DNA of 32,000 nucleotides, taken from an uncultured Nitrospinota bacterium (GTDB lineage: Bacteria; Nitrospinota; Nitrospinia; Nitrospinales; JAJDAT01). Positions 18,457-19,500 of this stretch are shown one piece after another. The position numbers and the translations under genes are program-made. Each line of letters starts with the position of its first letter. Position 1 is the stretch's first letter. Under the pieces are notes generated by a model. That model had not been told where the DNA came from and did not search any database. It saw only the letters and a list, made by a program, of their open reading frames with translations. The stretch lies in NCBI GenBank assembly GCA_964570665.1, contig CAZMZH010000016.1, forward strand, positions 9,642 through 41,641. The letters are read 5' to 3'.

Positions 18457-18634
18457 TGCATTGGCTCTTTTCAGTTTGATTCATTTCATCACAACAAGAA
18501 GATTCTTTTTTCTTAGGTAGTAAATCCACTACGAAATCAATCAGTGACTGCAATTTGCTCCTTGTACATTCACAGGCTTCTTCTGAAGAAACTGTCTCCT
18601 CTTCTATCTTGTCCCAATCTACATATTTTTTCAT
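18446..18634 (-). CDS. Small acidic Cys-rich protein (62 aa)
   Basis: The ATG overlaps the HgcA-like stop (ATGA) and the 3' end overlaps the next gene, so it appears translationally coupled. It carries the motifs CEC, SSCCDE and a C-terminal QC. I recognise no homolog. Confidence 0.6.
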   Translation of the reverse strand: MKKYVDWDKIEEETVSSEEACECTRSKLQSLIDFVVDLLPKKKESSCCDEMNQTEKSQCNDN

Positions 18635-19500
18635 AGCAACAACGTGCCTCCATAAACTAAAACCAAAAATACTAATATTTTTGCAAAAATTCCACCCGAT
18701 TGTTGGTTTTGCCCTAAATGTGAGTGTCCTTGTGCATCATATCCAATATACCCTCCCAAGGCAATTATCCCTAATGCGGCTTGGGTCTTTAGAACAGGAT
18801 CTGGAAATGATGTTATGGCGAGGGCTAAAATAGGCAGAGATAATGCTAATCCCTTATATAGTAACCTTTCAAATGGAATAAAGTGTTCAATCAATTGCAT
18901 AGAAAAAGCGAAATACCAGACTAAAGCGATCCCTTGTATCCACCAATCTGACGCAAAGAGAACTATTGGGATAATACAAACCAGGGTACAGAAAACAGCA
19001 TGACTGAGGCCCATTTTAAATCGTTCCCAATAGCCATACTCCAGAGCTTGCATATCTTTATTCTTGGTTAGTCCATTATTTAAGAATTCTTTTAAATCAG
19101 TAAAGTAAACCGGACCATATATACCCTCCCAACCATGTTCTTTTAGCTCTTTTCTTTTTACTCCAGCCACGGATAATTGTGGCAGTATTAATTTTTTGTG
19201 ATTCACTAATTTTGCTACATCGTATACTTTCAAGTGTGAAAGAACAGTGTCTGTAGTGAAAACTCCCTCGGCGGCTGCACACCAAACATTTGTTCCTTTG
19301 GTATTAACTACTAAGAGAAAGCAATCTAAAGCCTCCTTTTTTAAATATTCTTTTAAGTGCCTGACTGTGTAATCAAAATTACAGGTAACTAGGATCGGAG
19401 AAGTTTTATCCGGGTTTCCTACAGCAATGGTTTCTGGTTCGCATGGGAATCTGGCAAAACGAAATAGTGTTTGATAAATATCTTTAATCCAGCCAATCAT
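18631..19500 (-). CDS. HgcA-like corrinoid-binding membrane protein (CFeSP-derived domain plus C-terminal multi-TM domain)
   Basis: TIAVGNPDKTSPILVTCNFDYTVRHLKEYL...DCFLLVVNTKGTNVWCAAAEGVFTTDTV parallels the HgcA pattern VGNPDSPVLVT.NY...W.LVLDTKG.NVWCAAGKGTFGT. The C-terminal ~130 aa contain about 4-5 hydrophobic helices, as in HgcA. Confidence 0.75.
   Translation of the reverse strand: MIGWIKDIYQTLFRFARFPCEPETIAVGNPDKTSPILVTCNFDYTVRHLKEYLKKEALDCFLLVVNTKGTNVWCAAAEGVFTTDTVLSHLKVYDVAKLVNHKKLILPQLSVAGVKRKELKEHGWEGIYGPVYFTDLKEFLNNGLTKNKDMQALEYGYWERFKMGLSHAVFCTLVCIIPIVLFASDWWIQGIALVWYFAFSMQLIEHFIPFERLLYKGLALSLPILALAITSFPDPVLKTQAALGIIALGGYIGYDAQGHSHLGQNQQSGGIFAKILVFLVLVYGGTLLL

Follow-up and report, generated by a model that had tools for sequence, protein, structure and literature searches.

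Among the systems closest to the locus considered here, the HgcA/HgcB pair is reportedly the mercury methylation system described by Parks and colleagues in 2013, and the published set of Nitrospina 'HgcA-like' proteins is said to include the 2016 work of Gionfriddo and colleagues in Nature Microbiology. In the open ocean, hgcA homologues are most abundantly represented by the hgcA-like genes of Nitrospina, marine nitrite-oxidising bacteria, and these genes are widely cited as evidence that methylmercury arises in oxic subsurface water. Their products have been the subject of several publications (Villar et al., 2019/2020; Lin et al., 2021; Tada et al., 2020, 2021, 2026), the genomes SCGC AAA288-L16 and LS_NOB being sources of 'HgcA-like proteins' in Villar et al., and SI073_bin113 being the Nitrospina metagenome-assembled genome (MAG) of Lin et al. 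(2021); Villar et al. give a gene context of MerR1, DUF169, a UbiE methyltransferase, the HgcA-like protein and a YHS protein, with residues numbered N71 and C74. Here we analyse a stretch of 32,000 nucleotides (the 32-kb window) from an uncultured Nitrospinota bacterium (contig CAZMZH010000016.1, positions 9,642 to 41,641), which carries the gene for a 289-residue HgcA-like protein within a five-gene operon on the minus strand. That this is the Nitrospina-type HgcA-like protein already known is near certain; neither the gene, which has been described before, nor its Ala-Glu motif, a fixed hallmark of the lineage, is a new discovery. The cassette is most likely a metal-induced, S-adenosylmethionine (SAM)-fed, Cys-on corrinoid methyl-transfer module; we give the whole statement, comprising the known identity, a five-gene MerR-driven operon and a metal-methylation mechanism, a probability of roughly 55%, the proposed mechanism being much less certain than the identity.

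The protein is 83-92% identical to published Nitrospina and Ca. Nitromaritima HgcA-like sequences, its best relatives being Nitrospina sp. SI073_bin113 and Ca. Nitromaritima MAG WDNA14_bin.3 (92% each), Ca. Nitromaritima SCGC AAA288-L16 (90%) and Nitrospina sp. LS_NOB (86%). As this identity, the gene context and the residue numbering all match the published HgcA-like proteins, we recognize a family, and a setting for it, that are both known. Relatives were found at 22 loci in GTDB species genomes, while a collection of 5.8 billion proteins yielded approximately 50 of equal length at 56-92% identity, the named ones deriving from Nitrospinaceae MAGs. At lower identity the family extends to a Methyloglobulus MAG (62%) and a Nitrospirae MAG (56%), and about 90 residues are invariant among members whose mutual identity is 56-92%. 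The next tier in the same collection consists of fused HgcAB-like proteins of 360-440 residues with 4Fe-4S domains (35-40% identity), and true HgcA proteins appear only after these. The unfused cassette is also present outside Nitrospinota, in the Methyloglobulus MAG, in Nitrospirae SZUA-77, on a Nitrospirales chromosome and in a Flavobacteriales bin, occurrences which could stem from horizontal transfer or, on short contigs, from mis-binning. Flanking genes vary from locus to locus, suggesting mobility of the cassette as a single unit.

The translated open reading frame (ORF) contains ...LLVVNTKGTNVWCAAAEGVFTTDT..., its cap-helix stretch also being given as ...VNTKGTNVWCAAAEGVFTTDT..., and retains N71, W73 and C74, with A77 and E78 in place of Gly-Lys, just as the original prediction, made from the letters of this DNA, had read it. 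That prediction had also proposed an HgcA-like protein with a CFeSP-type fold, and the matches obtained agree with it; the WCAA string is not a chance occurrence in some other fold. Residues 17-130 correspond to Pfam CdhD (CO dehydrogenase/acetyl-CoA synthase delta/CFeSP; E = 1.1e-15), and a phmmer search of PDB sequences retrieved nothing but CFeSP large subunits, matched in their corrinoid-binding domains (2h9a, 4c1n, 4djd), the best alignment (2h9a_A; E = 1.4e-12) running without gaps from residue 20 to ~108 and setting C74 opposite Thr374. An AlphaFold2 model based on a 91-sequence alignment (mean predicted local distance difference test score, 90.9) comprises a short helix at residues 72-77 and five long C-terminal helices; its top Foldseek match is the deposited published HgcAB model 9a0b_A (E = 2.6e-11), followed by CFeSP structures whose corrinoid domains superpose at a root-mean-square deviation (rmsd) of 1.4-2.0 Å over ~125 residues. 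Hydropathy and the model together predict five transmembrane (TM) helices, at ~157-182, 184-203, 213-231, 235-258 and 269-288, where four to five had been anticipated, and the N-terminus is indeed short, true HgcA proteins having 20-80 more residues there, often rich in Cys. Cys74 is invariant in all 91 aligned homologues.

When this alignment is split by clade (26 Nitrospina-type, 51 fused and 14 true HgcA sequences), the cap helix reads NVWCAA(A/V)E in 26/26 Nitrospina-type members, and Ala/Val-Glu is therefore a fixed signature of the clade. True HgcA proteins carry NVWCAAGKG without exception (14/14), a GK found in 0/26 Nitrospina-type sequences; in the fused clade position 78 is Gly or Ala in 51/51 (mostly NVWCAAGGGH) and never Lys, so that the missing cap-helix Lys is common to the Nitrospina-type and fused clades. 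The high-stringency motif of Hg-MATE is N(V/I)WC(A/S)(A/G/S)GK, all other sequences being termed hgcA-like with no capability assigned (Capo et al., 2022), and the NVWCAAAE of the present protein fails it. Several surveys screen only for N(V/I)WCA(A/G) or for the Cys, and by such screens the Ala-Glu difference stays hidden. Profile scores fall below both relevant NCBIfam cutoffs, at 227.5 bits against 285 for HgcAB_like (NF043039; profile positions 1-225 of 350, short of the ferredoxin part) and 138.6 bits against 275 for HgcA (NF040863), and no Fer4 domain was detected in the protein. A neighbour-joining tree was built from 120 columns of the corrinoid domain and rooted with CFeSP. Bootstrap support reaches 100% for both the Nitrospina-type clade and true HgcA, and 89% for the fused clade; the Nitrospina-type clade is sister to the fused clade at 66%, versus 17% with true HgcA and 13% for the other alternative. 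By profile and tree, then, the protein appears to belong to the HgcAB-like lineage and not to that of true HgcA, having neither a ferredoxin domain nor an hgcB gene. Lin et al. (2023) likewise placed Nitrospina sequences in the fused-hgcAB clade, found all Nitrospina to be without a neighbouring hgcB, and reported no mercury methylation by the fused gene of Pyrococcus furiosus. The original prediction had offered a choice between altered partner specificity and a paralogue with another methyl acceptor; that choice fits a separate lineage with another partner set (CpaM, the 62-residue and YHS proteins, no HgcB), but a new variant this is not, given 90-92% identity to published sequences, and its nearest kin, the fused HgcAB-like proteins, are likewise without the Lys.

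This placement bears on a working assumption of much of the marine mercury literature, namely that such proteins are true functional equivalents of HgcA, which would methylate Hg(II) in vivo by means of a ferredoxin encoded elsewhere and rank among the main producers of methylmercury in the subsurface ocean. The retention of the cap-helix Cys, Asn and Trp and of the five-TM domain, the reported conservation of cobalamin-contact residues (Villar et al.), the presence of a three-Cys MerR regulator and metal-binding partners, and the transcription of the gene, whose abundance tracks methylmercury in several surveys, are all consistent with that view. We nevertheless consider it unlikely, as the stringent GK motif fails, the HgcA profile reaches only 139 bits, rounded, of the 275 set as cutoff, and the protein groups with a fused clade in which none of the tested members methylates mercury. 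Furthermore hgcB is missing, although activity in ND132 depends on HgcB Cys73 and on the C-terminal Cys pair of HgcB; the correlations between abundance and methylmercury are indirect; and the oxic habitat argues against Hg(II) as acceptor. A lineage with non-methylating tested members, no HgcB and a failed strict motif calls for caution wherever methylmercury production is deduced from these genes.

The original prediction had also stressed a charge reversal next to the corrinoid. The change from Gly-Lys to Ala-Glu is real, but is probably not the key point: in CFeSP (2h9a) the residues aligned with A77-E78 are both Ala and corrinoid is still bound normally, so Gly-Lys is dispensable for cofactor binding in this fold. 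In the HgcAB model of Cooper et al. (2020), HgcA touches the HgcB core through Gly96, Thr131, Gly132 and Arg136; by numbering, the offset of 19 between C93 of ND132 and C74 would map these onto A77, A112, G113 (invariant) and K117, with A77/E78 corresponding to Gly96/Lys97. The private invariants of Nitrospina-type proteins in the mapped region are E78 and K115-R116-K117. This suggests that A77-E78 and K115-R116-K117 may together represent a remodelled HgcB-docking surface, reflecting a changed partner and not a changed cobalt chemistry, which fits a partner change in a lineage without HgcB. Clade-invariant residues also include H167, C171 and C175, a His-x3-Cys-x3-Cys ladder (i/i+4/i+8) where TM1 begins on the cytoplasmic side, and H259 and H261 in the GHSH loop between TM4 and TM5, a loop that the predicted topology places in the cytoplasm. 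This His/Cys ladder and loop may form a soft-metal site.

The operon runs from 20849 to 18055 and encodes, in order, the DUF169 protein, the SAM methyltransferase assigned by NCBIfam to the family 'corrinoid protein-associated methyltransferase' (CpaM), the HgcA-like protein, a 62-residue Cys-rich ORF and a YHS/TRASH-type protein (Table 1). The last four genes overlap, by ATGA at each end of the HgcA-like gene and by 11 nt ahead of the YHS gene. Directly upstream of the HgcA(B)-like gene, a CpaM homologue was present in 26 of the 26 related loci fetched, fused ones included, whereas at two true hgcA loci (L027 and L028) hgcB lies downstream and a CpaM-type methyltransferase is absent beside hgcA. 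A literature search for CpaM gave only unrelated acronyms, and the preprint of Haft (2022) does not mention it. The 62-residue ORF occurs in related loci wherever the unfused HgcA-like protein does, under a ratio of nonsynonymous to synonymous substitution rates (dN/dS) of 0.07-0.09; it has no match in Pfam or NCBIfam, and the literature searches made here yielded nothing on it. Its likeness to the HgcB tail is an architectural analogy only, of a Cys at a helix start followed by a flexible CC tail. As a split-off tail of fused HgcAB or of HgcB it was considered and rejected: the Cys patterns in MAFFT alignments are alike, but hidden Markov model searches in both directions gave E values of 0.1-6, and hhalign a probability of 0.2%. 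Useful solved structures were found for neither DUF169 nor YHS proteins. No hgcB or other ferredoxin-type (CxxCxxCxxxC) ORF is present in the window, nor is hgcB in the related loci. Near the operon there are no Rfam matches to a cobalamin riboswitch or other RNA and no tRNAs, and the AT-rich 766 bp that separate the YHS gene from a response-regulator gene (17289-18054) contain no ORF of at least 50 residues, no Rfam match and no tRNA.

Table 1. Features of the HgcA-like locus, in coordinates of the window
Feature	Coordinates	Strand	Remarks
HgcA-like corrinoid membrane protein, 289 aa	18631..19500	(-)	Corrinoid-binding domain ~17-140; cap helix N71-V-W-C74-A-A-A77-E78; five predicted TM helices
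CpaM, class I SAM-dependent methyltransferase	19497..20129	(-)	NCBIfam NF043040, 253 bits vs cutoff 180; stop overlaps HgcA-like start (ATGA)
DUF169 (COG2043) protein, first operon gene	20139..20849	(-)	In Nitrospinaceae loci, not in most distant unfused loci
Conserved Cys-rich protein, 62 aa	18446..18634	(-)	Invariant CECTRSK, then predicted helix, mostly conserved C-terminal CC; start overlaps HgcA-like stop
YHS/TRASH-type Cys-rich metal-binding protein, 133 aa, last operon gene	18055..18456	(-)	Two CxxC...CxxxC-like repeats; C-terminal GCC
MerR-family metalloregulator, 138 aa, divergent	20942..21358 (ATG 20942)	(+)	Three conserved Cys, including C-x7-C loop (CEGGVVPDC)
MerR-type promoter of operon	20903..20933	(-)	TTGAAC, 19-nt spacer, TATAGT

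The loss of the sister clade's ferredoxin domain and of the signature Lys might be taken to mark the gene as a fused hgcAB in decay, no longer functional and stripped of its ferredoxin half. The purifying selection acting on the operon speaks otherwise: dN/dS is 0.04 for the HgcA-like gene and 0.04-0.09 across all five genes, which rules out a decaying relic. The approximately 90 residues held invariant at 56-92% identity, the maintenance of the operon in ~20 genomes and the transcripts reported in Tara Oceans data point the same way, and we regard this explanation, essentially refuted by selection and synteny, as having a negligible chance of being correct.

Transcriptional control of the operon appears to be of the MerR type. 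Each MerR-family ORF taken from a locus with the divergent arrangement retains the three Cys of the divergent regulator, and we take one of these Cys to occupy the position of Cys82 in the Tn501 MerR sequence. The over-long spacer of the promoter is typical of MerR-activated promoters, and encloses a perfect 10-1-10 palindrome, AACCTGTAGT-a-ACTACAGGTT (20910-20930), within the 92-bp intergenic region between the operon and the MerR gene; this palindrome presumably resembles operators of the PbrR/CadR/ZntR type. At least 10 related loci share this architecture of promoter and palindrome, and in two others a variant of it stands ahead of a MerR gene that is non-orthologous and co-directional. 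As a MerR-type promoter with its MerR lies here, and ArsR/SmtB metalloregulators precede the fused relatives, the whole lineage seems, from its gene neighbourhoods, to be wired to metal(loid) sensing. The fused loci examined (L002, 3466-7233; L004, 4122-7149) share one gene order: an ArsR/SmtB regulator, two ORFs of ~140 and ~161-167 residues, CpaM, an optional DJ-1/PfpI protein and the HgcAB-like protein. The two ORFs, which match no NCBIfam model, may be further parts of the system; as split DUF169 homologues (140 and 161 residues) they were rejected, BLASTP showing no similarity and NCBIfam no match. In a Bacteroidetes MAG (L027, 2286-6422), true hgcA and hgcB lie inside an ars-like cluster, in the order ArsR-type HTH_5 regulator, low-molecular-weight phosphatase (ArsC-like), DsbD_2, hgcA, hgcB and a transporter of the SBF family, which includes Acr3.

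The same neighbourhood bears on a further alternative, whereby the protein would be a corrinoid enzyme that methylates no metal at all, but catalyses reductive dehalogenation, captures methyl groups from halomethanes or handles corrinoid, its metal-related neighbours serving only regulation or cofactor supply. Sea water is rich in halomethanes, the HgcA family as a whole has no assigned physiological role, and a 2026 preprint describes dechlorination of CCl4 by heterologously expressed true HgcAB. Set against this, methyl loading is what the close translational coupling to a SAM methyltransferase indicates, the gene is conserved together with two Cys-rich metal-binding proteins and a metal-type MerR promoter, and the fused relatives sit behind ArsR/SmtB metalloregulators; a non-metal chemistry is therefore, in our estimation, improbable, and more so than a functional equivalence with HgcA.

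Returning to the metal-induced, SAM-fed methyl-transfer module that we favour, a thiophilic metal ion would activate MerR and switch the operon on. The corrinoid presumably bound by the HgcA-like protein would be reduced to Co(I) by a donor encoded elsewhere, and CpaM would load a methyl group from SAM onto the cobalt, with Cys74 bound as a lower axial thiolate as in true HgcA. The methyl group would then pass to a soft metal(loid) presented by the 62-residue and YHS proteins, by the His167/Cys171/Cys175 ladder and GHSH loop, or by both. In support of such chemistry, SAM has been shown to methylate the Co(I) of true HgcAB, giving methyl-Co(III) with Cys-thiolate ligation.

Several observations weigh against this mechanism. 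The Nitrospina habitat of oxic to suboxic water is difficult for Co(I) chemistry, and no gene for a reductant that could generate Co(I) lies nearby. True HgcAB took the SAM methyl group without any CpaM, so the role given to CpaM here is a conjecture, and the docking-surface argument draws on a computational model and on a residue offset taken from numbering. The MerR homologue scores near-equally against the MerR, CueR, CadR/PbrR and ZntR models, all below their cutoffs, such that the inducing metal is not singled out. Tested organisms with the sister fused HgcAB-like proteins make no methylmercury, and the literature to January 2026 calls the activity of Nitrospina HgcA-like proteins unconfirmed, with no isolate carrying the gene. 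A fully specified version of the mechanism is correspondingly doubtful: a self-contained, metal-induced methylation that dispenses with a dedicated ferredoxin and works under low-oxygen to oxic conditions, in which MerR would sense a soft metal, CpaM would load methyl from SAM onto a Cys-on corrinoid, the His/Cys ladder, the GHSH loop and the 62-residue (CxC/CC) and YHS proteins would deliver the metal, and Glu78 with Lys115-Arg116-Lys117 would recruit a substitute for HgcB. Were it true with Hg(II) as the metal, this cassette would answer the long search for the source of methylmercury in the oxygenated ocean interior; were it true with another metal(loid), it would represent a new biological methylation pathway. 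For expression work, the gene belongs with its co-translated CpaM, 62-residue and YHS partners, and possibly with DUF169, and should not be expressed alone or with a borrowed HgcB. The mapping of the partner surface, the universal coupling to CpaM, the conserved 62-residue gene and the MerR-type promoter are refinements offered to those who would test these proteins.

Directly downstream of the operon, the minus strand at 9424-17288 encodes a heavy-metal efflux system of the resistance-nodulation-division type and CusA/CzcA family (permease, adaptor and outer-membrane factor), together with a two-component system of heavy-metal type; all of these score below curated cutoffs, and this flank is not conserved in related loci. 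A bacterial proteasome cluster occupies 131-4195 on the same strand, with a proteasome subunit, a Pup ligase family protein and a proteasomal AAA ATPase with OB domains.

Among known systems, the CFeSP large subunit (AcsC/CdhE) of the Wood-Ljungdahl pathway has a like Rossmann-like corrinoid domain (rmsd as above), but has Thr in place of Cys74, adds an N-terminal [4Fe-4S] domain and a TIM (triosephosphate isomerase) barrel, and is soluble, with no membrane domain. With the true HgcA/HgcB system of Pseudodesulfovibrio mercurii ND132 the locus has in common the CFeSP-type corrinoid domain, N-V-W-C-A-A with its cobalt-ligating Cys, the five-helix membrane domain and an association with metal(loid) regulators; true HgcA, however, carries GK, a Cys-rich N-terminal extension and a partner HgcB, where the present protein has AE and neither extension nor HgcB, and a CpaM gene adjoins the HgcA-like gene but none of the true loci examined. 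Identity to true HgcA is ~30% overall and ~41% over the corrinoid domain. The fused HgcAB-like proteins (NF043039, with CpaM as NF043040; for example, that of Pyrococcus furiosus) form the best-scoring family, and share an N-terminal region, a VTCNF motif, an alignable TM domain, the lack of a cap-helix Lys and a CpaM gene directly upstream. They differ in their C-terminal 2x[4Fe-4S] ferredoxin domain, in Gly or Ala instead of Glu at position 78, and in an ArsR/SmtB regulator where MerR is found here; the clade-specific TM1 His/Cys ladder is absent from them, and the 62-residue, YHS and DUF169 genes of the present locus stand in place of their two unassigned ORFs. From the Nitrospina-type HgcA-like proteins of Villar et al., Lin et al. 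(2021) and Tada et al., with their equal 289-residue length, N71/C74 numbering, shared gene neighbourhood and lack of an adjacent hgcB, there is no substantive difference, and the window represents one more genome with this cassette, nearest to the Ca. Nitromaritima and Nitrospina sp. MAGs.

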